DNA of 64,000 nucleotides from a virus: IMG/VR virus record IMGVR_UViG_3300045988_137804, positions 1-64,000 of that record. The stretch is one strand, 5' to 3'. Below the pieces are notes generated by a model, which did no database searches, was not told the DNA's origin, and saw only the letters and a program-made list of their open reading frames with translations. The stretch's first letter is position 1; every line of letters starts with the position of its first letter. This document shows, piece by piece, positions 32,386 through 45,524 of this stretch. Position numbers and translations under genes: made by a program.

Positions 32386-35300
32386 ATGGTAAGAGTTATT
32401 AAAAGAGATTGCTCTGAAGTTGATTTTGATAAGAATAAAATTTCAACGGCAATCTTAAAGGCTATGAAAAATGGTAGCGGAATTGTTAAACCCAAAATTG
32501 CGGAATCTATTGCAGATGAGATTGAAAAGGAATGTAAGGATCGAGAAGAGATTGATATTTCTGAAATTGAAGCAATGGTATTTGACAAGCTGATTACCAA
32601 AAAACAGAGACTTACTGCAAGAGCATATGAAGGTTATAGAAGTACAAGAGAATTCCAGAGAGAGAATGAGAATACTGTTGACGAGGAAATTCTTGGAATT
32701 GTAGAAGCAAACAACGAAGAATGGAAAGATGAAAATGCGAATAAAAATCCAGCATTAAACCCTACAATTCGTGATTATATTGCTGGATCTGTAAGTAAAG
32801 ACGCAACAAAAAGATTTTTATTATCTCCAGAAATTATTCAGAGTCATTTAGAAGGAATTATTCATTTCCATGATTCAGATTACTTTATTCAACATATGCA
32901 TAACTGCGGATTAGTAAATCTTGAAGATATGCTTCAGAATGGTACTGTTATTAGTGAAACAATGATTGAAAAGCCACATAGTTTTTCTACAGCATGTACC
33001 GTGACTACTCAGATCATTGCTCAAGTTGCATCTAGTCAGTATGGTGGACAGAGTATCTCACTTGCACATCTGGCACCGTTTGTGGATGTTTCCAGAGAGA
33101 AGATCCGTAAGGAAGTGATCAGCGAGCAGGAACTGGTCGGAATGGAATATCCGGAAGATGTGCTCAATGAGATCGTAGAGAGAAGACTGAAAAAAGAGAT
33201 TACAAAAGGTGTTCAAACAATTCAGTACCAGTTAATCACACTTATGACAACAAATGGGCAAGCACCGTTCATCACAATTTTTATGTATCTGAATGAAGCA
33301 AAGAATGAGAGAGAAAAGAAAGACCTAGCGATGTTAATTGAAGAAATGTTACTTCAGAGAAAACTTGGTGTGAAAAATGAAGATGGTGTTTATATTGCAC
33401 CAGCATTTCCAAAACTCATTTATGTTCTTGAGGATGACAATTGTAACGAATCAACAGAATATTGGTATTTAACAGAACTTGCTGCCGAATGCACGTCAAA
33501 AAGATTAGTTCCAGATTACATCTCTGAAAAAGTAATGAAAGAACTTAAAGGTGATGTGTATACATGCATGGGATGTGTTGATGGAAAAGAACTTGTTACA
33601 TATACATATAACAATAATCTTTACGTTGAATCATTTGAAAGAATGTGGAATAGACTTTCTGATAGATTTGAAATAAAACATCAGTATAATGACAACAACC
33701 CAAATCTATATATGGATTTGAGCGATGTAGAAATCTATGACACAGACAAAGGATTTGTTAATACAGAGAGAATAATCAGAAATATATCAACCTCTTGGCT
33801 TGATGTTAATTTTTCCAACGGAAGAAGATTACTTTGTACAGAAGATCACCCACTTACATTAAGAGATGGAAGAACAATCCATGCATCTGAATTAAAATTA
33901 AAGGATAGAATTCTCATTAATTCACATCAGTATAATGAAGAAAATATTGTATTCAATGAAGACAAGGCGTGGTTGTTAGGTTTTATGCTTTGTGATGGAT
34001 GTTATCAAGGCTCTTTATTTTCTTCAATTGCAGCAGAAAATGAAGATGAAATTGCAGATAAGTTTTCAGAAACAATGAAGAAATATTTTGATCTCGATAT
34101 TGAAAAAAAATTACAGCAAAGAGGTAAGAAAGGAACATATTACGATTTGATTGCACATAGTCAGAATGAAAAAATATCTGTGTATTGTAATTATTTCGCT
34201 AAAAAATTCGAAGGTCTGAATAAGATTGATAGACATGTTCCTAATGAAGTATTTTCATGGAATTATTCGTCAAAACTTGCTTTCCTGGCAGGAATGATTG
34301 ATGCAGATGGGTACATTAATAGTTCTCAGAATAAAGGATTTTCTATAGTTCAAATTGGTTCTACAAACAAAGAACTTGCATTACAACAAATGGCACTTGC
34401 ACAGTCTTTAGGTATGCCAGCAAAGCTGTACCATAACCATTACAGTAAACGTAACCCAGAATTGATTAGATACAGAGTTGAGTTTTATCCAACAGATGAA
34501 CTAATTAATTATATTGTATGTAAAAAGAAATATGATAATTATATTGATTCAAATGTATCTAGTTATAATCATGAATCTGAAGTTACTGAAATCAACAAAA
34601 TTAATAAAAAAATGTTTTCTTACGATGTAACAACAACAAGTGAGCATTTTGAAATTAGCGGAATCTATAGTCATAATTGTAGGTCTTTTTTAACTGTTGA
34701 TAGATTTTCTGATAAAGTTGGAAACATTTCTAACGCTAAAAACTTTAATGGAAAACATAAATATTACGGAAGATTTAATCAGGGTGTTGTTACAATTAAT
34801 CTTCCAGATATTGCATTTTCATCTGATGGCGACATGGATAAGTTTTGGGGAATTTTCGAAGAAAGAACAGAATTATGCCATAAGGCTTTAAAGGCTAGAC
34901 ATAACCGTTTGCTTAAAACTTCTTCTGATATTGCACCAATCCTGTGGCAGAACGGAGCATATGCAAGACTTAAAAAACATGAACCAATTGACAAACTTTT
35001 ATTTGATGGATATTCAACGATTTCTCTTGGATATGCAGGACTTTATGAGTGTGTGAAATATATGACAGGAAAATCCCATACAGATGGTGATGTAGGAGAA
35101 AAGTTTGGATTGGAAGTAATGCAAGCATTAAATGATAAATGTAATCAGTGGAAAGAAGCTGAAAACATTGATTATAGTTTGTATGGCAGCCCAATCGAAA
35201 GCACTACGTATAAATTTGCAAAGTGCTTAAAAAATAGATTCGGTGATGATATTTTTATTAAACTTGATGGATTTGATAGAAATTATATTACAAATAGTTA

Positions 35301-35730
35301 TCACGTTCCTGTGTTTGAAAGAATTACAGCATTTGACAAATTTAAAATTGAATCAAAATTCCAAAACCTTAGTCCAGGAGGCGCAATTTCGTATTGTGAA
35401 ATCCCATCAATTAACGTAAATATTCCAGCATTATTGGAAGTAATTAAATTTATTTATGACAATATTATGTACGCAGAAATCAATACAAAAGATTGTTATT
35501 GCGAAGTGTGTGGATACGATGGAGACATTCCACTTATTGACGATGATAACGGTAAACTTGTATGGGAATGCCCTAATTGTGGCAACACAGATAATACAAA
35601 AATGGACATCGCATTTAGAGTTTGTGGTTATGTTGGTACTGCAAAAAATGGTGGAAACCAAGGAAGATATGGAGATATCCACGATAGAGTTTACCACATC
35701 GATGACTTTGAATACGAGGAAAATGAATAA
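32386..35730 (+). CDS. nrdD: anaerobic ribonucleoside-triphosphate reductase (class III), interrupted by an intein
   Basis: ATP-cone start VIKRDCSEVDFDKNKI, conserved MGC|RSFL site split by the intein, C-terminal zinc site CxxC...CPNC and glycyl-radical motif RVCGYVG. Confidence 0.9.
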   Translation: MVRVIKRDCSEVDFDKNKISTAILKAMKNGSGIVKPKIAESIADEIEKECKDREEIDISEIEAMVFDKLITKKQRLTARAYEGYRSTREFQRENENTVDEEILGIVEANNEEWKDENANKNPALNPTIRDYIAGSVSKDATKRFLLSPEIIQSHLEGIIHFHDSDYFIQHMHNCGLVNLEDMLQNGTVISETMIEKPHSFSTACTVTTQIIAQVASSQYGGQSISLAHLAPFVDVSREKIRKEVISEQELVGMEYPEDVLNEIVERRLKKEITKGVQTIQYQLITLMTTNGQAPFITIFMYLNEAKNEREKKDLAMLIEEMLLQRKLGVKNEDGVYIAPAFPKLIYVLEDDNCNESTEYWYLTELAAECTSKRLVPDYISEKVMKELKGDVYTCMGCVDGKELVTYTYNNNLYVESFERMWNRLSDRFEIKHQYNDNNPNLYMDLSDVEIYDTDKGFVNTERIIRNISTSWLDVNFSNGRRLLCTEDHPLTLRDGRTIHASELKLKDRILINSHQYNEENIVFNEDKAWLLGFMLCDGCYQGSLFSSIAAENEDEIADKFSETMKKYFDLDIEKKLQQRGKKGTYYDLIAHSQNEKISVYCNYFAKKFEGLNKIDRHVPNEVFSWNYSSKLAFLAGMIDADGYINSSQNKGFSIVQIGSTNKELALQQMALAQSLGMPAKLYHNHYSKRNPELIRYRVEFYPTDELINYIVCKKKYDNYIDSNVSSYNHESEVTEINKINKKMFSYDVTTTSEHFEISGIYSHNCRSFLTVDRFSDKVGNISNAKNFNGKHKYYGRFNQGVVTINLPDIAFSSDGDMDKFWGIFEERTELCHKALKARHNRLLKTSSDIAPILWQNGAYARLKKHEPIDKLLFDGYSTISLGYAGLYECVKYMTGKSHTDGDVGEKFGLEVMQALNDKCNQWKEAENIDYSLYGSPIESTTYKFAKCLKNRFGDDIFIKLDGFDRNYITNSYHVPVFERITAFDKFKIESKFQNLSPGGAISYCEIPSINVNIPALLEVIKFIYDNIMYAEINTKDCYCEVCGYDGDIPLIDDDNGKLVWECPNCGNTDNTKMDIAFRVCGYVGTAKNGGNQGRYGDIHDRVYHIDDFEYEENE
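33574..34677 (+). mobile_element. 368-aa intein with a LAGLIDADG homing endonuclease inside nrdD
   Basis: Starts at Cys (CVDGKELVT) right after YTCMG. Block B TEDHP. Two LAGLIDADG motifs (LLGFMLCDGC, LAGMIDADGYI). Ends ...IYSHN followed by the +1 Cys of CRSFL. Confidence 0.85.
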
Positions 35731-36275
35731 TGAAATATAACTCAATTAGATACATGGACATCAGTAATGGAGAGGGCGTTGGAGTCGCCCTTTTCGTACA
35801 AGGCTGCAATTTCCATTGTCCTTCTTGTTTTAACCAAGATACTTGGGACTTCAATGGTGGCAAAGAATGGACAGAAAAAACTAAAGAAACATTTCTTAAA
35901 TTAGCAGATAAACCATACATAAAAAGAGTTTCATTTCTTGGTGGAGAATGTTTAGCAAATGAAAATCTTGAAGGAGTTTATGATGTTATCAAAGATGTAA
36001 ACGAATTATTTCCTGATAAAAAGATATGGATGTATACAGGCTATACTTGGGAATCTATTTTTAATCCAATTGTGACTGACAATCTTGATCTGGAAAGAGA
36101 TAGACTTATTGAACTCAGAAAAATGATTGTTAAAATGACAGATGTTCTTATTGATGGACAATATATTCATGAACAAAGAGATATGAATTTAAAATTCCGT
36201 GGCAGCAAAAATCAGTGTGTTATTGATACAAAAAAATCTCTTGATCAGGGCAAAATAGTTCTATATCTTGATTAA
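35730..36275 (+). CDS. nrdG: anaerobic RNR activating protein (radical SAM)
   Basis: CNFHCPSCFN cluster motif. ATGA-type overlap with nrdD. Confidence 0.85.
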   Translation: MKYNSIRYMDISNGEGVGVALFVQGCNFHCPSCFNQDTWDFNGGKEWTEKTKETFLKLADKPYIKRVSFLGGECLANENLEGVYDVIKDVNELFPDKKIWMYTGYTWESIFNPIVTDNLDLERDRLIELRKMIVKMTDVLIDGQYIHEQRDMNLKFRGSKNQCVIDTKKSLDQGKIVLYLD

Positions 36276-36331
36276 TTAATTATAATGAGGACGCATTAAT
36301 TTGTGTCCTCTTAATTAAAAGGAGCAACAAA

Positions 36332-36604
36332 ATGAACGAAGAAATCAAACCAAAACAAGTTCTATATTATGCACAAATTCTTCCGACAGTTGGTATTTAT
36401 CATGTATTAGAAATGAAAGTAGCAACAGTCTATGATACTTATTTTGCAGTCACAGAAAAGCGTGATAAACATCGCTATTTGTTCAATTATGAAGATGTTG
36501 GTAGAACCATTTTCTTCAATAGAAGTGAGTGTTTAGAAAAAGTAAAATACGCTGAAGCTCATGGCAAAAAAGTAAGCAACGAAACATATTACGAAGAAGA
36601 TTAA
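36332..36604 (+). CDS. hypothetical protein
   Basis: AAAGGAG RBS, 90 aa. Confidence 0.5.
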   Translation: MNEEIKPKQVLYYAQILPTVGIYHVLEMKVATVYDTYFAVTEKRDKHRYLFNYEDVGRTIFFNRSECLEKVKYAEAHGKKVSNETYYEED

Positions 36605-36615
36605 GGTGATAAAAC

Positions 36616-37365
36616 ATGGCGAATAAATTATTAGAATATAAAAATAGATTTCGTTTACGTGTACCTATTTGCGAATCAACTCATGATTTTTCACGTAAGC
36701 TAGATGGAAGTTTAGAAGATATTGATATCTATGTTGATTGTGCTTGTGATTGTAAAATTTTTCATTATGGTCATAAAATTTTTGAAGCATATATTCCATC
36801 TATACAAAGAGGACATAACATTTTAAAACAATTATATTATGAAAATATTAATCCAAATAATGTAAATGTTACTGAGAAAGAAATGGTAGCAAGAGGAACA
36901 AAAACAACAAAACTTTCTTACCATATCATCGACAATGATCTATATAAATCAGAATTAAAATCATCAGATTTTTTCCCATTTATTCAGGAATCAGATTCAG
37001 AAGTTATCTTTAGATTTCACGAAAAAGATTTTGAGAAAGTAATTAAATTATTAAAACCAAAAACTCTTGGTGCAGGTATTTCTCCATTCAGTACGAAGAA
37101 TTTACCTAAACGAAAGTATGAAATAAGTGATGACCAGTTAAGAGAATATAAGAGTATAAACGACTCTATTCCTCAGTCTGATAAATTAAAGCTCTCAAGA
37201 ATTACGAGCGATTTTATCAACAATATTATGTCGAAAAACAAACGATATAATATTGTTGATATGAAAAAATTAATGAGAAAAAAGATGCTAAATGGTAAAG
37301 AATTTATTCACGAAGAAGGTTTCTGGAATGAATATATTTCTTATTTAAAGAAGAGATTGTGGTGA
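36616..37365 (+). CDS. hypothetical protein
   Basis: 249-aa ORF with an RBS. No motif recognised. Confidence 0.55.
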   Translation: MANKLLEYKNRFRLRVPICESTHDFSRKLDGSLEDIDIYVDCACDCKIFHYGHKIFEAYIPSIQRGHNILKQLYYENINPNNVNVTEKEMVARGTKTTKLSYHIIDNDLYKSELKSSDFFPFIQESDSEVIFRFHEKDFEKVIKLLKPKTLGAGISPFSTKNLPKRKYEISDDQLREYKSINDSIPQSDKLKLSRITSDFINNIMSKNKRYNIVDMKKLMRKKMLNGKEFIHEEGFWNEYISYLKKRLW

Positions 37366-37371
37366 AGAAAA

Positions 37372-37719
37372 ATGAAACAATTAAAGTTGAGTAAAAAATG
37401 CAAGCATGAAGATTTAGTTGCGTATGGTTTCAGAAAACACGGACTGAATTATAAACTTTCAGTTCCATTATATACATATAAAAAGATTCCGGTTATTAGT
37501 GTAAGTTTTCTCGTTTCATGTCTTGATAATTATGTTGGTTATGATGTGATCGACAACAATTCTGACATGATTTACACAGCTTATTATGACACAAGTTTGT
37601 GCGGAGAGAATAAAGTATTAGAGAAAGTTAAACGAAAACTTGATGAAGTTTTTGAGGAAATGACTGAGAAAAATATTTTAAAAGGAGATAAAGAAGATGC
37701 AGAGAATTGCGAAATTTAG
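37372..37719 (+). CDS. hypothetical protein
   Basis: 115-aa ORF directly following the previous gene. Confidence 0.5.
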   Translation: MKQLKLSKKCKHEDLVAYGFRKHGLNYKLSVPLYTYKKIPVISVSFLVSCLDNYVGYDVIDNNSDMIYTAYYDTSLCGENKVLEKVKRKLDEVFEEMTEKNILKGDKEDAENCEI

Positions 37720-38203
37720 TAAAGTTAGTTTTGAACAGTTTAAAAAAGATTGGATTGATACATTTGGAGATGTAACAGAAGATAAGATTAAAGAGGTTTA
37801 TGATAACATTAAATTGCCAAAAAGAGCTACTGCAATGTCAGCAGGTCATGATATAAGCATTCCATTTGATACAAGTATTAAGAATGGCGAGGTTGTAAAA
37901 ATTCCTACCGGAATTCGATGCAAAATGGATGATGGATATGTAATGTTTGTGTTCCCCCGAAGTAGCATGGGAATTAAAAAAGGAATGGTAATTTGTAATA
38001 CTATTCCTGTAATTGATGGAGATTATTTTGGAGCAGATAACGAAGGTCATATCTTTATTTGTGTCACAAATACATACAAAAAATCAATAGAATTAAATTC
38101 TGGGGATAATATTGTACAGGCAGTTTTCACTAAATTTGGTGTAGCAGATGACGAAAAAATTACAGAAAAACGATTGGGAGGAGTTGGTAGCACTGGATTA
38201 TAA
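37697..38203 (+). CDS. dut: dUTP diphosphatase (trimeric dUTPase)
   Basis: Motifs SAGHDI, PRSSMGIKKG, IDGDYFG and RLGGVGSTG. Confidence 0.85.
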   Translation: MQRIAKFSKVSFEQFKKDWIDTFGDVTEDKIKEVYDNIKLPKRATAMSAGHDISIPFDTSIKNGEVVKIPTGIRCKMDDGYVMFVFPRSSMGIKKGMVICNTIPVIDGDYFGADNEGHIFICVTNTYKKSIELNSGDNIVQAVFTKFGVADDEKITEKRLGGVGSTGL

Positions 38204-38855
38204 ACCTATAGATTTTGACGAATCAAAAGAAGTATGGAAATTATGTGATGATTATCCTGGCAATTATATTAGTAATTATGGAAGAGTTAAAAGGGATTCT
38301 TATACATATCATTATAAAAATGGAAAAATAAAAAATTACAAGCCTATAATAAAAAAATTAACTGAAACTAGCAAAAGGAAAGGTACAATTCAAGGGTATT
38401 TATGTACTCGAATGATTGGTTCTGATGGAAATAGTAAATGTGAAATGGGTCATAGGCTTGTAGCAAAAGCTTTTATTCCTAACCCAAATAACCTACCTAC
38501 AGTAAATCATAAAAATGGCAATAAACATGATAACCGAGTAGAAAATTTAGAATGGACTTCTTATTCTGACAACAATCAACATGCATACGCAAATGGCTTA
38601 AAAGGCGATAATGTTATAATGCTACAAGTTGACCAAGATAATTATATCAAACAAATATATTTTTCTGAAGAATATGCAGCGTTATGTAATTGTTTATCTA
38701 CGAAAAACATTAGAAATAGTTCTGAGAAAAATACGTTAGATTATTATAATAATAAATGGATTAGATTTTATCCAAACAAATACAAAATTACAGTAGACGA
38801 CAACGCAACGGAAGTTCGCAATGGTGGTTTCGGATCTACAACAAAATCTAAATAA
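38148..38855 (+). mobile_element. HNH homing endonuclease (NUMOD4-like N-terminus plus HNH_3 core)
   Basis: WKLCDDYPGNYISNYGRVKR, then HRLVAKAFIPNP...VNHKNGNKHDNRVENLEW. The ATG overlaps the dut 3' end by 56 nt, so the start is uncertain. Confidence 0.8.
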
Positions 38856-38871
38856 ACACATGTAATAATTA

Positions 38872-38899
38872 TTGACAGGAATGCATAGTGTGGTAAAAT
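38872..38899 (+). promoter_or_regulatory. near-consensus sigma-A promoter (TTGACA, 16 nt, TGnTAAAAT)
   Basis: TTGACA at 38872-77, extended -10 TGGTAAAAT at 38891-99. The 10-bp inverted repeat AGGAATGCAT / ATGCATTCCT (38877-86 / 38911-20) straddles it. Confidence 0.65.
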
Positions 38900-38905
38900 G
38901 ATACT

Positions 38906-39240
38906 AACAAATGCATTCCTCTATGTCCCTATGCAATCCAAATTTGCATTTTTTCATCAAAATTGTGTAAATTATTTTTGCACTTTTGTCGAGCGTCAAA
39001 TAAACGAAATAGTTTACAAAATAGACATAGAAGGTAGTGTTTTTGGGAAAATCTAAGAAAATGGTTTTAGTACCCAATTTTTGCTCTATGTCGAGTTCGA
39101 AAAATGGCTTAAAATAAGGCTTTTTTGAGGGTCAAAATCCTAATGAAATACCAATTTCATTCGAACTCAAAATCCACATTAAAAAGTAAAAATAAAGGGT
39201 ACTAGACTTAGCAAATTGCTGGTTTAGTACCCTTTTATAA
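38906..39240 (+). ncRNA. putative ~330-nt structured leader or non-coding RNA (promoter to terminator)
   Basis: No credible ORF. Bounded by the promoter at 38872 and the terminator at 39194-39240. Several strong helices and repeated GGTTT(T)AGTACCC segments. Confidence 0.4.
39194..39240 (+). terminator. intrinsic terminator (long hairpin plus T-tract)
   Basis: AAAGGGTACTA (39194-204) pairs perfectly with TAGTACCCTTT (39225-35). The helix extends through most of the intervening 20 nt. Followed by TTTTAT. Confidence 0.6.
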
Positions 39241-39299
39241 AACGCAAAAATTATTTGCCCCAAAAGTGCAAAATTAGATTACACAATGACATAGAGAAT

Positions 39300-39442
39300 T
39301 TCCCAAAAACGATTTTTGGGAAGAAGATGAAAATGCCGATAAAGCCCGTGGTTGACACGTTTTCTCTTTCCCAAAAATTTTCCCAAAAATGAAGAAAAAG
39401 TTCCCAAAAACGATTTTTGGGGAAAATAGCCATTTTTGGGAA
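39300..39442. promoter_or_regulatory. array of TTCCCAAAAA sites including two 23-bp palindromes
   Basis: TTCCCAAAAA-CGA-TTTTTGGGAA at 39300-22 and 39401-23 (one mismatch). Half-sites at 39368, 39380 and 39433, plus 39040. They flank a TTGACA at 39352-57 upstream of the tns operon. Confidence 0.6.
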
Positions 39443-39518
39443 GCTTTATTCTTACACATGAATGCATTTGTTATTCATCAAAAACTGTATAAACATACAG
39501 ATGAAAGGAGCAAATGCT

Positions 39519-39863
39519 ATGCAGAAAAAGAATTACAAAGGTCGCTGCGAGAAATTAACAGTGCCAAAATCTAAGGATGTCTGCCATATCTATAATGACA
39601 TCCAAAAGTCTTATCTATTACAACTTCAGGACGATCCAAACATCAAAGAGATAAAATGTAATGTCCTTATGCTTGGATTGGAACTTGGAGAATTCACATC
39701 TGATTTTCAGTGTGTTACAGCAGACAACAATCTAATAGTGCGTGAATGTATCTCACGAGATGCTATCGCCAAACCAATGACAGCAAAACGATTAGATGCT
39801 TCAAGAGAGTATTGGTTTCGTCATGGCATAACAGATTGGGGGATTGTAACCGATGAAAAATAA
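39519..39863 (+). CDS. tnsA: short TnsA-like protein (endonuclease N-terminal-domain-like, 114 aa)
   Basis: AAAGGAG RBS. LQDDPNIKEI...GEFTSDFQCV...LIVRECIS...REYWFRHGITDWGIVTDE resembles the TnsA core (..YTPDF.V....EVK....E.yW...g..w.ivte). The expected E and K positions do not look conserved. Confidence 0.45.
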   Translation: MQKKNYKGRCEKLTVPKSKDVCHIYNDIQKSYLLQLQDDPNIKEIKCNVLMLGLELGEFTSDFQCVTADNNLIVRECISRDAIAKPMTAKRLDASREYWFRHGITDWGIVTDEK

Positions 39864-41661
39864 GAGTCTATTTTATAATCCAAAAACCAAAGAAATATTT
39901 CGTGTGTTAGACAGTAAAGGTTCAAAAGTTCTTATCATTAATTGCACAAAGAAACAGATGCCTTATTGGACAGAATTCGATTCAATTTCTTCCTGTCGTT
40001 TAATCACAGAAGATGAATTACAGGACATGACTGGCACACATTTTCAAGAACTAACTGTACCATCAAAAGAATACAGATATGTTCAAGAAAGGTTTTCACT
40101 GATTTCAAATATCATTCCTATCATCGGAAATAAAAGCAAGCGTACTCAGATGATACGAATCATATCTGAAACAAATAATTGCAGTAAACAAACAATCAAA
40201 AACATCTTGTGCCAGTATCTCATCTATCAAAATATTTCTGCATTAGCACCGCAAAAGAGCAATGAAAAAGAACTAACAACAGATGAGAAAAACATGCGTT
40301 GGGCATTAAATAAGTTCTTCTATACAAAGAATAAGAATTCATTATCAACCGCTTACGTCATGATGCTTAAAGAAAAATATACAGATGAATACAACAACTT
40401 ATTACCACACCCAACCATTCATCAGTTCCGTTATTTCTATCGCAAAACAAAAAAGATGGAAACGTATTATATCTCAAGAGATGGCATAAAAGATTACCAA
40501 AGAAATCACAGACCATTGCTAGGAGAAGGAATTAGAACAGTTGCAAATAGCATTGGAACAGCTATGTTGGATTATACAATCTGTGATATTTATCTCGTAA
40601 ACGATAAACAAGAATTAATTGGTCGTCCATTAATGACAGCTTGCATTGATGTCTACAGCGGATTGTGTTGTGGTTACTCATTAACATGGGAAGGTGGAAT
40701 GTACAGTTTGCGTTCTTTGATGTTAAATGTGGTCACTAATAAGAAAGAACATTGTAGAAAGTTTGGAATAAATATCGAAGAATCCGACTGGAATTGTCAT
40801 CAATTACCTGCAACATTAATCACAGATAAAGGTTCAGAATATGCGTCAGAAAACTTTGAACAACTTACAGATTTAGGAGTGTCTATTATAAATCTACCAG
40901 CCTATAGACCAGAGTTAAAAGGATCAGTTGAAAAGTTTTTTGATATGATTCAATCACTTTATAAGCCACAGTTACTAGGAAAAGGTGTCATAGAATCTGA
41001 TTTCCAGGAACGTGGCTCACATGATTATAGAAGAGATGCTTGTCTAACATTAGAACAATTTGAAAAAATAATTCTTCGTTGCATCATCTATTATAATACA
41101 CAGAGAATTATCAAAAATTCACCACTGATTGAACAAAATATTCCGCCACATTCTTGTGACATATGGAACTATTATTTGACCTATAATGATGACTTTTTGA
41201 TAAGAATATCGCCACAGAATCTACTTTTATGTTTGCTACCAAGAACGAAAGGAGTGTTTAAAAGAAATGGTTTAAACGTCAATAGTCTCCGCTATAAGCA
41301 TAAAACATACACCGAAATGTATCTTGTAGGAGGAGATGTAACAGTAGCCTACAATCCAGAAGATGTTTCTTACATTTGGCTCATTGAAGAAAATGGAACG
41401 TATGTAAAATTTGAATTAATCAATTCTCAGTTCTATGGAAAGGATTTATCATTTGTAGAAAAATATATGGAGTCATCTAAGAAGCTAATTGCAGAAAATA
41501 CCGATGATAATTTACGAGCAAAAGTTACGCTTTCAAAAGATATAGATTTTGTAATTTCTGAAAGTGTACGTTCTAATGTAAGCACAAAAAATATCCGCAA
41601 GAATCGTCAGAAAGAACAGGAACTTACTCATAGAGATTTCGTAAAGGAGTATGAATTATGA
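39853..41661 (+). CDS. tnsB: TnsB/MuA-family DDE transposase
   Basis: DDE candidates in MLDYTICDIYLV, LITDKGSEYAS and RPELKGSVEKFF. 602 aa. Overlaps tnsA-like by 11 nt. Confidence 0.8.
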   Translation: MKNKSLFYNPKTKEIFRVLDSKGSKVLIINCTKKQMPYWTEFDSISSCRLITEDELQDMTGTHFQELTVPSKEYRYVQERFSLISNIIPIIGNKSKRTQMIRIISETNNCSKQTIKNILCQYLIYQNISALAPQKSNEKELTTDEKNMRWALNKFFYTKNKNSLSTAYVMMLKEKYTDEYNNLLPHPTIHQFRYFYRKTKKMETYYISRDGIKDYQRNHRPLLGEGIRTVANSIGTAMLDYTICDIYLVNDKQELIGRPLMTACIDVYSGLCCGYSLTWEGGMYSLRSLMLNVVTNKKEHCRKFGINIEESDWNCHQLPATLITDKGSEYASENFEQLTDLGVSIINLPAYRPELKGSVEKFFDMIQSLYKPQLLGKGVIESDFQERGSHDYRRDACLTLEQFEKIILRCIIYYNTQRIIKNSPLIEQNIPPHSCDIWNYYLTYNDDFLIRISPQNLLLCLLPRTKGVFKRNGLNVNSLRYKHKTYTEMYLVGGDVTVAYNPEDVSYIWLIEENGTYVKFELINSQFYGKDLSFVEKYMESSKKLIAENTDDNLRAKVTLSKDIDFVISESVRSNVSTKNIRKNRQKEQELTHRDFVKEYEL

Positions 41662-42917
41662 TTAATATGAATAAAGTAATCAAAGAACTTCCTGATATGC
41701 TGTCCGGAAATGAACTTCAGAAAGCAATGTCTATTATTCCAAAATACGACAAACAGATTCAGGAAGATGGAAGTATGACCGAAAGACTTTTGAAATTATC
41801 TGACCTTTATAGCATTTATATTCCATCACAAATGTCTACTGAAATTTATAGCAAACTATATCTTGGAATCATTCGTTCTATGCAGAAAAAAGGAAACAAG
41901 TTAACTGTACAACAATTCAATTCAACTTATAGAACGATGCAGAATATTAAGAATAAAACTGGCAATCAGCAATATGATGGAATCATAGGTGGATCAGATT
42001 CATTTACAATTATTGGTGCAAGTGGGATAGGAAAATCATCAGCTATTTCTCGTGCATTGAATCTGATTGAAGCAAATCATGTAATAGAAATTGAACAGCC
42101 TTACACTAAAATACTTCCATGCTTAACAGTGCAATGTCCATTCGATTCTTCTGTAAAAGGATTATTACTTGAAATTCTTCGCAAAGTTGATGAGCAGTTA
42201 GGAACAGATTATGCACAAACAAAAAGGTTCACGACTGATATGCTTATAGGTGCTGTTAGTCAGGTGTGTTTAAATCATATTGGCTTGCTTGTTGTAGACG
42301 AAATACAGAACGTAGTTAATTCAAAGAACGGCAAGAACTTAATCGGATCATTGACGCAGCTAATCAACAATTCAGGCATTAGCATCTGCATGGTTGGAAC
42401 ACCAGATAGTGAAATATTCTTTGAACAGGCTATGCAATTAGCTCGTAGAAGTGTCGGATTAAAATACACAGCTTTGCCATACGATGAACATTTTTGCGAA
42501 GTATGTGAATGCTTATTTTCTTACCAATATGTAAAAAATATCACATATATAAATAGCACGACTATAGAATGGTTGTATCAACACAGTGCAGGAGTTATCT
42601 CTATTGTTGTATCATTAATTCATGATGCACAAGAGATTGCAATCTTAAATGGGAGAGAAGTATTAGATATTAAATCGTTAGACGAAGCATACAACAATAG
42701 ACTTTCTATGTTGCACGATTATATTAGACCTACTATGAGAAAGAAATCTATCGGCAATAATAAAATAAAGAAACAAAATATCATTACAACTTTGTCGATA
42801 AAAAATAGCGCAGATATTCAAACAGATTTAATACAAAGTCTTGCGAAAGAATGTAAGAAAGATGGAACAGATATTGTAGAAATACTGAGTCAACATATTA
42901 CAATTGAGGTGATTTAA
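41658..42917 (+). CDS. tnsC: TnsC/TniB-type AAA+ transposition ATPase
   Basis: Walker A IIGASGIGKSSAI, Walker B LLVVDEIQN. ATGA overlap with tnsB. Confidence 0.8.
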   Translation: MINMNKVIKELPDMLSGNELQKAMSIIPKYDKQIQEDGSMTERLLKLSDLYSIYIPSQMSTEIYSKLYLGIIRSMQKKGNKLTVQQFNSTYRTMQNIKNKTGNQQYDGIIGGSDSFTIIGASGIGKSSAISRALNLIEANHVIEIEQPYTKILPCLTVQCPFDSSVKGLLLEILRKVDEQLGTDYAQTKRFTTDMLIGAVSQVCLNHIGLLVVDEIQNVVNSKNGKNLIGSLTQLINNSGISICMVGTPDSEIFFEQAMQLARRSVGLKYTALPYDEHFCEVCECLFSYQYVKNITYINSTTIEWLYQHSAGVISIVVSLIHDAQEIAILNGREVLDIKSLDEAYNNRLSMLHDYIRPTMRKKSIGNNKIKKQNIITTLSIKNSADIQTDLIQSLAKECKKDGTDIVEILSQHITIEVI

Positions 42918-44318
42918 ATGATTGGATTTATGCCTAAATTATATCCAGATGAATTAGTGTATAGTTGGATTGCTAGGTATCATGTAAGAACTGGACATTA
43001 TAGTTATCAGCAAACAGCAAAACATCTACTAGATAAGAAAGCAAATATTGTCTCGAAAAAGTTTTTAAACGAATACTCAAATGAATTTTTTAACATCATC
43101 AAAAAGAATATTCCAATAAAAGAGTTAGTAATAAATCATAGTATGCTGTCAGCTTATATTAAATTTTTGCCAAAAGATAAGCGCAATAATCTAATAGAAT
43201 CCTATGAAAACAATTTAAGATATAAAGAGTCATCAATTGGATTTAAGACAAGAAGTAATGGTATTAGTATGCGATATTGTCCTATATGTGTAAAGGAAGA
43301 TCGAGAAAAATATGGAGAAACTTACTGGCACAGAGAACATCAATTTGTTGGAATTAATGTATGCACAAAGCATAAATGTTATCTTATAGATTCCAAAATG
43401 TCTGTAAAAAGTATTGATAAGTCTGAGTTTTATACCGCAGAATATGTCATAGAACAACATGATGATGTTAAGATTTCCAATAATGAGTATGAGATAAAGT
43501 TTGCCAAGTATTTTACAGAAGTCATAAATACAGAGTCAAATAATGACTCAAATATTGTGGAATATCTCAATACTATATTATTGAACTCAAAGTATAGAGC
43601 AAATGGATGTATGCTAAAAGATTTTAATAAATTGTACGATGATTATTCTGAATTATGCGAAAAGATTAATGTAAATATAATTTCTTCACAACCATCGTTA
43701 AGAGAGATATTAAAAAATAAACGCAGAACATTGGATATTTGTATCCTTGGAATGCTATTGAATATTTCGCCTTACGATCTCGTGAATAGAGTATTGCCAA
43801 ATACAAACAAAGAGGATATCAGAGAGCAAGTCATATTTTTAAGAGATGTAAAAAAGATGAGTTATAATCGTATTGCAAAAGAATTAAACGCAAGTAGAAG
43901 AGCAGTTGGTACAATATATCATAGTAAAAAAACTGAAAATGATTTAGATGTTCTTAAACTTCTTAAAGATGAACTGCCAAAATTCTATAATGGAGATTTA
44001 ACTAATGGAAGACCGCAAAAAATAACAGTATACACAGTTGAAAAACAATTTGATATTCCACAAAAAGTATTAATAAATAATAAATCCTATTATAACGAAA
44101 TAATCAAGTATGAAGAGTCTTATCCTGAATATTGGGCGAGAGAATTAGTATGGTCTTATAATAAACTAAAGGAAGATAAAGCATATATAAGTCAAAATAA
44201 AATAACCAAACAAATAAATATTCGTAAGGAGCAACCTGTAAAAGCTATACCATACATCTCTAAATATACAGACAAAGAAACTGCTGAAGCTATTAAATCA
44301 TTATTGCAAAAATCGTAA
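42918..44318 (+). CDS. tniQ: TniQ/TnsD-family target-selection protein with C-terminal HTH
   Basis: N-terminal LYPDELVYSWIARYHVRTGH, zinc module RYCPICVKED...HREHQFVGINVCTKHKCYL, and a later HTH-like MSYNRIAKELNASRRAVGTIY. Starts immediately after the tnsC stop. Confidence 0.8.
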   Translation: MIGFMPKLYPDELVYSWIARYHVRTGHYSYQQTAKHLLDKKANIVSKKFLNEYSNEFFNIIKKNIPIKELVINHSMLSAYIKFLPKDKRNNLIESYENNLRYKESSIGFKTRSNGISMRYCPICVKEDREKYGETYWHREHQFVGINVCTKHKCYLIDSKMSVKSIDKSEFYTAEYVIEQHDDVKISNNEYEIKFAKYFTEVINTESNNDSNIVEYLNTILLNSKYRANGCMLKDFNKLYDDYSELCEKINVNIISSQPSLREILKNKRRTLDICILGMLLNISPYDLVNRVLPNTNKEDIREQVIFLRDVKKMSYNRIAKELNASRRAVGTIYHSKKTENDLDVLKLLKDELPKFYNGDLTNGRPQKITVYTVEKQFDIPQKVLINNKSYYNEIIKYEESYPEYWARELVWSYNKLKEDKAYISQNKITKQINIRKEQPVKAIPYISKYTDKETAEAIKSLLQKS

Positions 44319-44324
44319 AAAAAT

Positions 44325-44360
44325 GGGGAATAGAAGAGTATTAAATCTCAACTATTCCCC
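44325..44360. terminator. hairpin terminator shared by convergent tniQ and the endolysin gene
   Basis: GGGGAATAG (44325-33) / CTATTCCCC (44352-60). The T-tract (ATTTTTTT) is on the minus-strand side, so it fits best as the endolysin terminator. Confidence 0.6.
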
Positions 44361-44378: not shown

Positions 44379-45524
44379 TTATTTTAAAGCACCGCTTGAA
44401 TTAAAGCTATATTCTTTTCCACCTATTTTAATTATTTCATTACAAGCCATTGATCCATCATCTTTAAGATAATATTTTGTGCCTTTATCTGTAACCCAAT
44501 GATTTCTCATCATTGCTCCGACTGGGATACAATCCTTATCTTTATTATACCAATACCATTTATTATTTTTTTTTAACCAACCAGTTACCATTGAACATCC
44601 TGGAAATCCAGAGACTTCTCCACTTGATACAAAATAATAATCATTTGTCCCATCATTATATTCGCCTAAAACTGCTGAACCAGTTTGATGATTTTTACCT
44701 CCACTTGTTCTCAATAGATACCAAAAACCATCAATTTTTCTCCAACCCGTAACCATCGCACCGATTGCATAATATGGCGTATTAGATTCACTTAAATAAT
44801 ACCAGTCGCCATTATCACAAAGCCAACCAGTTTTCATACTGCAATCATCATTAAAATAATACCAATGTCCATTTATTGATTCCCATTTATTATTTATAGC
44901 ATAACCATTTTTGTCAAAGTAGTACCAAACGTTATCTAGACATTTCCACTGTTCCTTTGGGTATGATTCGTCATCATTTCTATACCACCAGCCAATATTG
45001 TCTTTTTTCCAACCAACAGATATTTTATTAGTAATATCTTTCTTGAACTGATTCCAAATAGAAGAGTCACAACCGTTTGCACCCCAACCTGTCCAACCTG
45101 GACAAGACTTAGAGCATACATCCCAATGACGAACAACATGAGCTGCATCGATGTTATATTTCTTCATAAGTGTTTTAGTAAGTTCAACTGTATTTCTATA
45201 TGTTCCATCAGAAATCTTTCCGTCTGTAGAACACATTTCGATGCTAATTGAATTACTATTCGTACATTTTCCAAATAAGTTATTTGAACCGTAATTTCTT
45301 CCAACAGCCCAAGCCGTGTCACTATCGGAAACTACCTGTACTACGTTCTCTGTATCAACGAAATAATGAGCAGATGCACCACGGTTAGTACTTTTAAAGT
45401 AGTTGCCGTTGTTCACAGATTTGTCCCACCAATTTCCTGTGTAGTGAATTACAATATACTTTCTTCCGTTATTACCTTTTGTGTAATTAACTTTAGTAAG
45501 GTTTTGAATAAGTTTGTAAGCCAT
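44379..45524 (-). CDS. endolysin: N-acetylmuramoyl-L-alanine amidase (Amidase_2/PGRP-like) plus cell-wall-binding repeats
   Basis: IVIHYTGN...ASAHYFVD...AWAVG...SISIEMC amidase core. The C-terminal half holds about 6 GW..(x)..WYYF/WYYL repeats. Confidence 0.85.
   Translation of the reverse strand: MAYKLIQNLTKVNYTKGNNGRKYIVIHYTGNWWDKSVNNGNYFKSTNRGASAHYFVDTENVVQVVSDSDTAWAVGRNYGSNNLFGKCTNSNSISIEMCSTDGKISDGTYRNTVELTKTLMKKYNIDAAHVVRHWDVCSKSCPGWTGWGANGCDSSIWNQFKKDITNKISVGWKKDNIGWWYRNDDESYPKEQWKCLDNVWYYFDKNGYAINNKWESINGHWYYFNDDCSMKTGWLCDNGDWYYLSESNTPYYAIGAMVTGWRKIDGFWYLLRTSGGKNHQTGSAVLGEYNDGTNDYYFVSSGEVSGFPGCSMVTGWLKKNNKWYWYNKDKDCIPVGAMMRNHWVTDKGTKYYLKDDGSMACNEIIKIGGKEYSFNSSGALK

Follow-up and report, generated by a model that had tools for sequence, protein, structure and literature searches.

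A 368-bp miniature Tn7-type transposon, its tns genes lying outside its ends, as the probable integration site of a large gut phage

The subject of this report is the stretch from position 38872 to 39240 of a 64,000-nucleotide viral DNA sequence (IMG/VR record IMGVR_UViG_3300045988_137804, positions 1 to 64,000; the whole of this sequence is referred to as the window), which is located between an HNH endonuclease gene and a four-gene operon for Tn7-type transposition (tns) proteins. Our analyses reveal that most of this stretch, from 38924 to 39240, is the larger part of a DNA-level element made of two Tn7-type transposon ends, and that the complete element, hereafter the cassette, is a 368-bp miniature Tn7-type transposon at 38924-39291 on the plus strand, with the inverted ends 5'-TGTC...GACA-3' and a putative terminator hairpin between them. 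We regard it as highly probable that this two-ended cassette, served by tns genes that lie outside it, inserts the whole phage at one host site, in which case it would be a cis-acting integration site as well as the unit that is duplicated at both prophage borders. The window derives from a phage of ~33% G+C that encodes a DNA polymerase, a helicase, NrdD, a dUTPase, tail proteins and a choline-binding lysin.

Homology to the host-integrated copies of the cassette begins and ends exactly at 38924 and 39291, respectively. Inside these limits there are two TnsB-type repeats per end, each of ~27 nt and of the form TGYAA-N7-TTTGCAY: the terminal repeat F1 (CCCTATGCAATCCAAATTTGCATTTTT, 38927-38953) and the inner repeat F2 (AATTGTGTAAATTATTTTTGCACTTTT, 38961-38987) on the plus strand, and the inner repeat R2 (39238-39264) and the terminal repeat R1 (CATTGTGTAATCTAATTTTGCACTTTT, 39262-39288) on the minus strand, with a spacing of 34 nt at one end versus 24 nt at the other. 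F2 and R1 were found by an inverted-repeat match and by a position-weight scan, F1 and R2 by the scan. The matrix built from the four repeats gave 23-29 bits for each of them and 15 bits for the next best site, so that they are the only strong matches in 64 kb. In addition, the stretch is bracketed by an inverted repeat of 26-35 nt (38919-88 versus 39261-96), not listed in the initial annotation of this DNA, whose 26-nt core (38963-88 versus 39261-86) contains 3 mismatches, while shuffled sequences gave no such repeat; the promoter-like site at 38872-99 lies outside of it. A conventional second transposon end, searched for left of 38923 and downstream of tniQ, was found neither by pattern nor by weight-matrix scan, and it is this absence that leads to the reading of two ends in one cassette.

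The operon next to the cassette runs in the same direction and encodes a mini-TnsA of 114 aa that consists of the endonuclease domain only (39519-39863), the transposase TnsB (39853-41661; Tn7 TnsB, 7pik, is its best solved relative at E 1.1e-37; Pfam Mu-transpos_C and HTH_TnsB), the AAA+ regulator TnsC (41658-42917; Tn7 TnsC at E 1.1e-18; Pfam TniB and AAA_22) and a TniQ/TnsD-type target selector with a C-terminal helix-turn-helix (42918-44318; PF06527 at 6e-21, Tn7 TnsD at E 1.8e-9), and this order, tnsA-B-C-Q, is retained in all loci. The first gene of the operon begins 228 bp beyond the GACA terminus, outside the cassette; the genes lie between two ends, as is typical for Tn7, only when the entire prophage with its two copies is regarded as the element. 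A sequence search with mini-TnsA against solved structures returned no match, and its likeness to TnsA comes from fold comparison only. The protein is kept in every relative with invariant D62 and E76. It is devoid of the C-terminal domain that contacts TnsC in Tn7, and the lysine of the D...ExK motif is apparently replaced by V/I, an assessment based on where the motif lies and not on aligning single residues with those of TnsA. Neither a cas gene nor a CRISPR array was noticed among the gene calls around the tns operon, a statement that rests on these calls and involves neither a systematic search nor a scan for CRISPR repeats. Downstream of tniQ there is a hairpin and then a convergent lysin gene, but no transposon end; this hairpin (GGGGAATAG...CTATTCCCC, 44325-44360), placed between the tniQ stop and the lysin stop, is likely a two-way terminator of the convergent units, to judge from its sequence and position.

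Support for integration at the cassette comes from its flanks. Loci were gathered from public assemblies by means of TnsB homologs, the phage dUTPase and a host deacetylase; TnsB homologs of >90% identity are common in gut metagenomes. All four combinations of flanks and, besides, one empty site are present in these assemblies. Phage sequence on both sides of the cassette is seen in the window, L010 and L011. Host sequence on the left and the tns-bearing phage on the right is seen in L005, L009 (the isolate [Ruminococcus] faecis JCM 15917) and L030, where homology to the window starts exactly at the TGTC of 38924. The reciprocal junction is represented by L012, in which the HNH gene and the promoter are followed by CTCTA/TGTC...TTGACA/ACACACGG (slashes mark the cassette limits) and then by a host ABC-F gene. 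Host sequence on both sides is found for the solo copies L031 and L032, which come from two samples and contain 368 bp in the arrangement ACACA/TGTC...GACA/ACACA. The 5-bp duplication ACACA is perfect at the solo copies, and the same 5 bp occur at the L009/L005 and L012 junctions. In the empty site (L033), the gap of 67 nt holds a hairpin of -29.1 kcal/mol, and its loop, CACACA, is the insertion point. Insertion takes place in the loop of a terminator hairpin of the host, which separates a gene for a polysaccharide deacetylase from a convergent gene for an ABC-F ATPase, and this intergenic hairpin is occupied in L005, L009, L012, L030, L031 and L032. L030 has a different flank (CAAAA) and carries the same cassette allele as the window, which implies at least two independent insertions.

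The way in which metagenomic contigs end points in the same direction. Every assembly break lies at a distance of k or k-1 nt from one of the cassette termini: four Logan contigs (k=31) begin exactly 30 nt before 39291, a MEGAHIT k141 contig begins 141 nt before it, and one contig begins at 38924, while the contigs from the HNH side stop ~55 nt (L013, L016) and ~32 nt (L014) past 38923, which would fit k=55 and k=33, values that the records do not give and that we inferred. Since a de Bruijn graph branches wherever the sequence beside a repeat differs between copies, breaks at the termini mark the cassette as a repeat with at least two kinds of flanks in those samples. With regard to the carrier, a 160.8-kb contig spans the junction and a 195.8-kb contig begins inside the cassette, which suggests a phage of at least 160 kb, perhaps ~196 kb. 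Annotated phage records contained no DNA match to 38600-39900, and only distant Acinetobacter matches were obtained there with the TnsB protein. Within IMG/VR, no relative of TnsB was found and two end patterns had no match, while one pattern led to a single contig, which ends after 55 nt of the cassette.

Diverged relatives display the same layout. In L017, a second phage whose TnsB is 79% identical, the promoter, the CTCTA/TAGAG flanks and the tns leader are all preserved, as is a cassette, here of 250 bp and with a different interior. L019 (60% TnsB identity) is an element that encodes a D5-type primase and sits at the 3' end of guaA, with a cassette of ~192 bp, and L022-L029 (58%) are elements with ArdC-like and D5-type primase genes at guaA and ssrA, with a cassette of 220 bp; a relaxase gene was seen in L021, a relative of the latter. 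The tns operon lies outside the cassette in L017, L019 and L022-29 alike, and the cassettes of 190-250 bp have unrelated interiors. For the L022-L029 type, Logan contigs again begin exactly 30 nt before the terminus ...GGAACA. A second cassette copy at the far end of the integrative elements does not occur within the 22-kb loci.

The integrative elements also provide an observation on target choice. TnsB, TnsC and TniQ are 100% identical in L022 and L024, which sit at guaA, and in L023 and L025, which sit at ssrA, meaning that one element uses two sites; the insertion points are a few nt past the guaA stop codon and ~18 nt past the tmRNA gene. The flanks of guaA and ssrA (300-370 nt) share no sequence >9 nt and show no guide-like match, and the use of both sites by the selector is unexplained.

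Based on these junctions, the prophage is seen as bracketed by two direct copies of the cassette, which is the structure of a cointegrate. We propose that the TniQ/TnsD-type protein would mark the target, where TnsC would recruit TnsB bound to the four repeats. TnsB would pair both cassette ends and connect the 3' end of each with the target, at positions 5 bp apart. On the circular phage the ends face each other, and with the donor 5' strands left uncut, replication of the joint would lead to a cointegrate with the whole phage in the chromosome. Recombination between the two copies would then free the circle and leave a solo cassette behind. Tentatively, and with somewhat less than even confidence, we suggest that replicative transposition by TnsB, TnsC and TniQ/TnsD fuses the whole carrier (a circular phage of possibly ~160-200 kb here, integrative mobilisable elements in relatives) into the chromosome at a protein-chosen site, and that the solo cassette restores the split terminator and may mark the site as used via target immunity. 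There are precedents for such an outcome: May and Craig reportedly obtained cointegrates with TnsA catalytic mutants of Tn7 in 1996. Replicative transposition was predicted for relatives without TnsA, and donor-target cointegrates are a normal product of replicative Tn7 relatives (PMC8649781); for Tn6022, cointegrates made up 39% (PMC10293859).

The same cassette and proteins could also work by cut-and-paste, which we deem rather unlikely. Here, mini-TnsA and TnsB would cut the outer termini of successive cassettes in a concatemer, or in a linear genome with the cassette as terminal repeats, and the cassette-phage-cassette unit would be inserted by simple transposition. The product, two full copies and a 5-bp duplication, is identical to the one observed, a TnsA-fold protein with invariant acidic residues is encoded in every relative, the proteins are nearest to those of the cut-and-paste element Tn7, and a phage with its own DNA polymerase would fit concatemeric replication. 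However, ends that are only 368 bp apart should pair preferentially, and cutting there destroys the phage circle; moreover, mini-TnsA has neither the TnsC-contacting domain nor, apparently, the lysine of D...ExK.

A further scenario, clearly improbable in our opinion, holds that lysogeny is routinely achieved by Campbell-type homologous recombination between the phage cassette and a resident solo cassette, the Tns proteins serving only to seed the solo copies. Such copies do occur in the host population at this site, a single crossover with one of them yields exactly the observed two-copy prophage, and the fact that no resolvase was noticed nearby suggests homologous recombination at least in excision. 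Yet the linkage of cassette and tns operon in four diverged families and in different kinds of elements is hard to explain if the Tns proteins were useless to the carrier, the flank and allele of L030 document at least two independent insertions, and 368 bp at 92-97% identity are a weak substrate for recombination.

The initial annotation offered a rather different interpretation, namely that the promoter drives a ~330-nt regulatory leader or stand-alone non-coding RNA, in which a terminator/antiterminator choice or a guide function controls the tns operon. Its individual features were all found where it had placed them. The promoter, TTGACA-16-TGgTAAAAT at 38872-38899, matches the consensus at 11/12 positions with an extended -10 TG and is the top-scoring site in 38000-40500. 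The inverted repeat that overlaps it consists of AGGAATGCAT (38878-87) and ATGCATTCCT (38910-19), and the hairpin arms AAAGGGTACTA (39194-204) and TAGTACCCTTT (39225-35) pair as described, with a TTTTAT after the stem of which 3 T's already belong to the stem. A near-copy of the 3' arm is likewise present (TTTAGTACCC at 39066-75 and 39223-32) and allows an alternative pairing of 8 bp. A promoter-like site that is directed into the stretch and conserved in relatives, followed by a strong hairpin with a T-run ahead of the tns operon, together with a fold z-score of -6.7, speaks in favour of such an RNA, and the stretch is free of open reading frames in a loose sense, as only mechanical ones of 43-57 aa exist.

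Despite these features and a supported terminator candidate, the structured-RNA interpretation proved mostly wrong, and we now consider it very improbable. No compensatory changes occur in the proposed helices among 7 close relatives, which are too similar to be informative except for one helix, and this sole variable helix (39093-101 with 39160-68) is broken, having lost 2 of its 9 pairs without compensation in 3 of the 4 distinct sequences. Another one (38931-36 with 38944-49) is simply the internal dyad of the transposase-site repeat F1. As to the switch, the near-copy is absent from L017, where most of the cassette interior is not conserved, and the structure of minimum energy contains the terminator hairpin by itself. 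Computational folding of 38906-39245 did give -91.5 kcal/mol (z -6.7), but the opposite strand also folds well (z -3.7), which is the pattern expected of DNA-level inverted repeats, and the transposon ends account for this signal. A guide RNA is equally unsupported, since complementarity to the target flanks is no better than chance: the longest match to 300-nt flanks was 9 nt, the same as in shuffles, and no guide-like match beyond chance was seen for this phage or for the guaA/ssrA element. An E-value scan of 36000-42000 against Rfam yielded no family above threshold (sub-threshold, rli56 on the minus strand at 39373-39482). Finally, the promoter belongs to the phage backbone and the terminator to the mobile cassette, that is, to separate genetic units. 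The stretch does resemble attenuator leaders and intrinsic terminators in having a G+C-containing hairpin and a T-run between a promoter and an operon, but it differs from them in that no alternative pairing is conserved and the hairpin is part of a mobile DNA cassette and would act on both strands. This case may serve as a caution that inverted transposon ends may resemble structured RNA.

That the cassette is an unrelated non-autonomous element which came into the phage by chance, the host-cassette-phage joins being assembly chimeras, can scarcely be credited: a 368-bp repeat common to phage and host, of which solo copies exist in the host, could mislead short-read assemblers, yet the join of host, cassette and tns genes was recovered three times, by different assemblers and in one case from an isolate genome, the cassette occupies the same place beside the tns genes in diverged phages and integrative elements, and no further matches to its repeats exist in the window.

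Some observations do weigh against insertion of the whole phage through the cassette in the replicative manner proposed above. The phage-cassette-host junction is a single example (L012), and a look-up with the HNH protein gave no further ones; the two prophage junctions stem from different samples and were not seen on one molecule, and assemblers could in principle mis-thread a repeat of 368 bp. Two contigs of 0.2-1 Mb with an identical HNH protein and a phage-cassette-phage neighbourhood are unexplained; they could represent tandem prophages or result from scaffolding. The phage flanks of the cassette, CTCTA and TAGAG, are inverted and do not form a direct duplication. No resolvase or recombinase was noticed adjoining the cassette, although the window was not scanned for recombinases, and mini-TnsA may have retained 5'-strand cleavage, in which case cut-and-paste would be favoured over the replicative route. 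Besides, promoter and terminator are predictions from sequence.

The hairpin of the cassette (39194-39235) is preceded by an A-run and followed by a T-run, and it is a candidate for an intrinsic terminator in both directions. Folded alone, it forms a long and nearly continuous stem of -24.7 kcal/mol (z -6.9) on the plus strand, and on the minus strand it reaches -19.1 kcal/mol and is followed by UUUAUUUUU; a simple terminator scan missed it only because the allowed loops were 3-8 nt. The hairpin is invariant in 7 relatives, and the solo copy L031 differs in loop bases only. Moreover, all four diverged cassettes (window, L017, L019 and L022) possess a non-homologous hairpin with a T-run in the same orientation, with energies of -21.0, -16.8, -16.5 and -22.5 kcal/mol; in L017, where the alignment with the window shows a gap, it was found by folding. 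The presence of unrelated hairpins and T-runs in four cassettes argues that the terminator function is selected. We surmise that this hairpin, which looks like a two-way intrinsic terminator, would replace the host terminator split by the insertion, for both convergent genes, and would also shield the tns operon from incoming transcription, either from the host gene in the lysogen or from the promoter at 38872-99 in the circle.

Two further features were observed in the interior of the cassette. At 39083-39141, a patch of ~60 bp exists in two sharply different haplotypes among cassette copies that are otherwise ~95% identical, and each haplotype can form a small hairpin in a differing register. 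The adjacent dyad AATGAAA-N5-TTTCATT (39142-39161; 4339-4358 in L017), in which the initial annotation had placed an RNA helix, is among the few interior pieces common to the window and L017; its loop varies among close relatives, and it may be a protein site.

The promoter-like site at 38872-38899 (plus strand) is of the sigma-70 type and is part of the phage backbone, 25 bp outside the cassette and directed into it. Its conservation extends to L010-L016 (variant TGaTACAAT) and to L017, and it is absent from the host-side junctions L005, L009 and L030. In the circle it is aimed toward tns, while in the lysogen it lies at the far prophage border and is directed across the other copy of the cassette at the ABC-F gene of the host. 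Its spacer and likely start site are overlapped by two AATGCAT(T) dyads (38878-38919; 38878-87 and 38910-19). The first of them is upstream of the -10 element, and the pair therefore cannot be an RNA hairpin; by sequence, the dyads would rather be a DNA operator pattern. The base that flanks the dyads (G, T or A) co-varies among phages (GGAATGCAT/ATGCATTCC, GTAATGCAT/ATGCATTAC and GAAATGCAT/ATGCATTTC), which suggests a shared sequence-specific regulator.

A tns leader outside the cassette (39292-39518, plus strand) contains seven TTCCCAAAAA/TTTTTGGGAA motifs (39300-39442) and, upstream of mini-tnsA, a third dyad, AATGCATT (39460-73). The latter is a perfect 14-nt inverted repeat of 38905-18, and this pair, 541 bp apart, encloses the cassette and the tns leader. 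The TTCCCAAAAA/TTTTTGGGAA motifs occur in both orientations and cluster only in the leader, with one more copy in the cassette (39040-49) and nothing beyond chance elsewhere in the window. The same kind of leader repeat is present in L017 (4447-4596), L019 (4350-4660) and L022 (9434-9658), down to 58% TnsB identity. A transposition enhancer and an operator are both possibilities for these motifs.

Although the parts of this system are all known from Tn7, their arrangement was not found in the literature we searched: coverage of that search was incomplete, and nothing within it described tns genes placed outside the transposon ends or a phage that becomes lysogenic through Tn7-type proteins. 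Tn7 itself (TnsABC+D, with attTn7 downstream of glmS) supplies the closest solved relatives of the proteins described here, and it shares termini of the type 5'-TGT...ACA-3', several TnsB repeats per end with unequal spacing (here 34 versus 24 nt), a 5-bp target duplication and a single target in the chromosome, within the terminator region that follows a gene. Unlike in Tn7, the tns genes are not enclosed by the ends, which are separated by only 368 bp and face one another on a circular carrier. In addition, TnsA is reduced to a nuclease domain of 114 aa, and the natural product has two element copies around the whole phage, with one copy in the free form. Type V-K CRISPR-associated transposons and the Tn5053/Tn402 family likewise have a core of TnsB, TnsC and TniQ, but these systems have no TnsA, carry their genes inside the ends and find their targets by Cas12k or at res sites with the resolvase TniR, whereas here the TnsA fold is kept and the cointegrate itself is apparently a useful end product.

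Phage Mu, too, integrates by means of a DDE transposase that belongs to the superfamily of TnsB, aided by an AAA+ protein with homology to TnsC (MuA/MuB). However, the ends of Mu are its genome termini, its integration is near-random and it replicates by transposition, while in the present phage there is a fixed site, a TniQ/TnsD selector, an own DNA polymerase and a single internal cassette that holds both ends. The functional layout is reminiscent of lambda attP and integrase, where a short cis site on a circular phage stands next to its enzymes and is duplicated at the prophage borders. It differs in that DDE transposition with a 5-bp duplication would take the place of conservative recombination, that no core is shared with the host site, and that excision would leave a 368-bp copy.

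If our interpretation is true, a large phage with its own replication machinery would be temperate without an integrase, by virtue of Tn7-type proteins acting on a 368-bp site, and the same layout would be in use by the integrative elements of other gut Clostridia that sit at guaA and ssrA. It would also provide a natural system, with a minimal TnsA of 114 aa, in which to ask why Tn7 relatives make a simple insertion in one case and a cointegrate in another, and would explain why metagenome contigs of these phages break at this place and allow solo cassettes to be read as scars of past lysogeny. As a prospective tool, a donor site of 190-370 bp and four genes might deliver whole circular DNAs to a defined site in gut commensals.

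A few observations concern the phage genes around. NrdD (32386-35730, 1114 aa) contains an intein with a LAGLIDADG homing endonuclease; for its homolog in L011, of 706 aa, the record lists neither an intein nor a homing-endonuclease domain. The gene for the HNH/NUMOD4 homing-type endonuclease (38148-38855) overlaps the end of the dUTPase gene, and it is absent from the equivalent position in L017, where an HNH gene is present elsewhere. The lysin gene that is convergent with tniQ (44379-45524) is swapped among close relatives (equivalents in L001, L002, L005 and L007), the versions comprising Amidase_2 with choline-binding repeats, Amidase_2 alone, Amidase_3, and Amidase_3 with choline-binding repeats.

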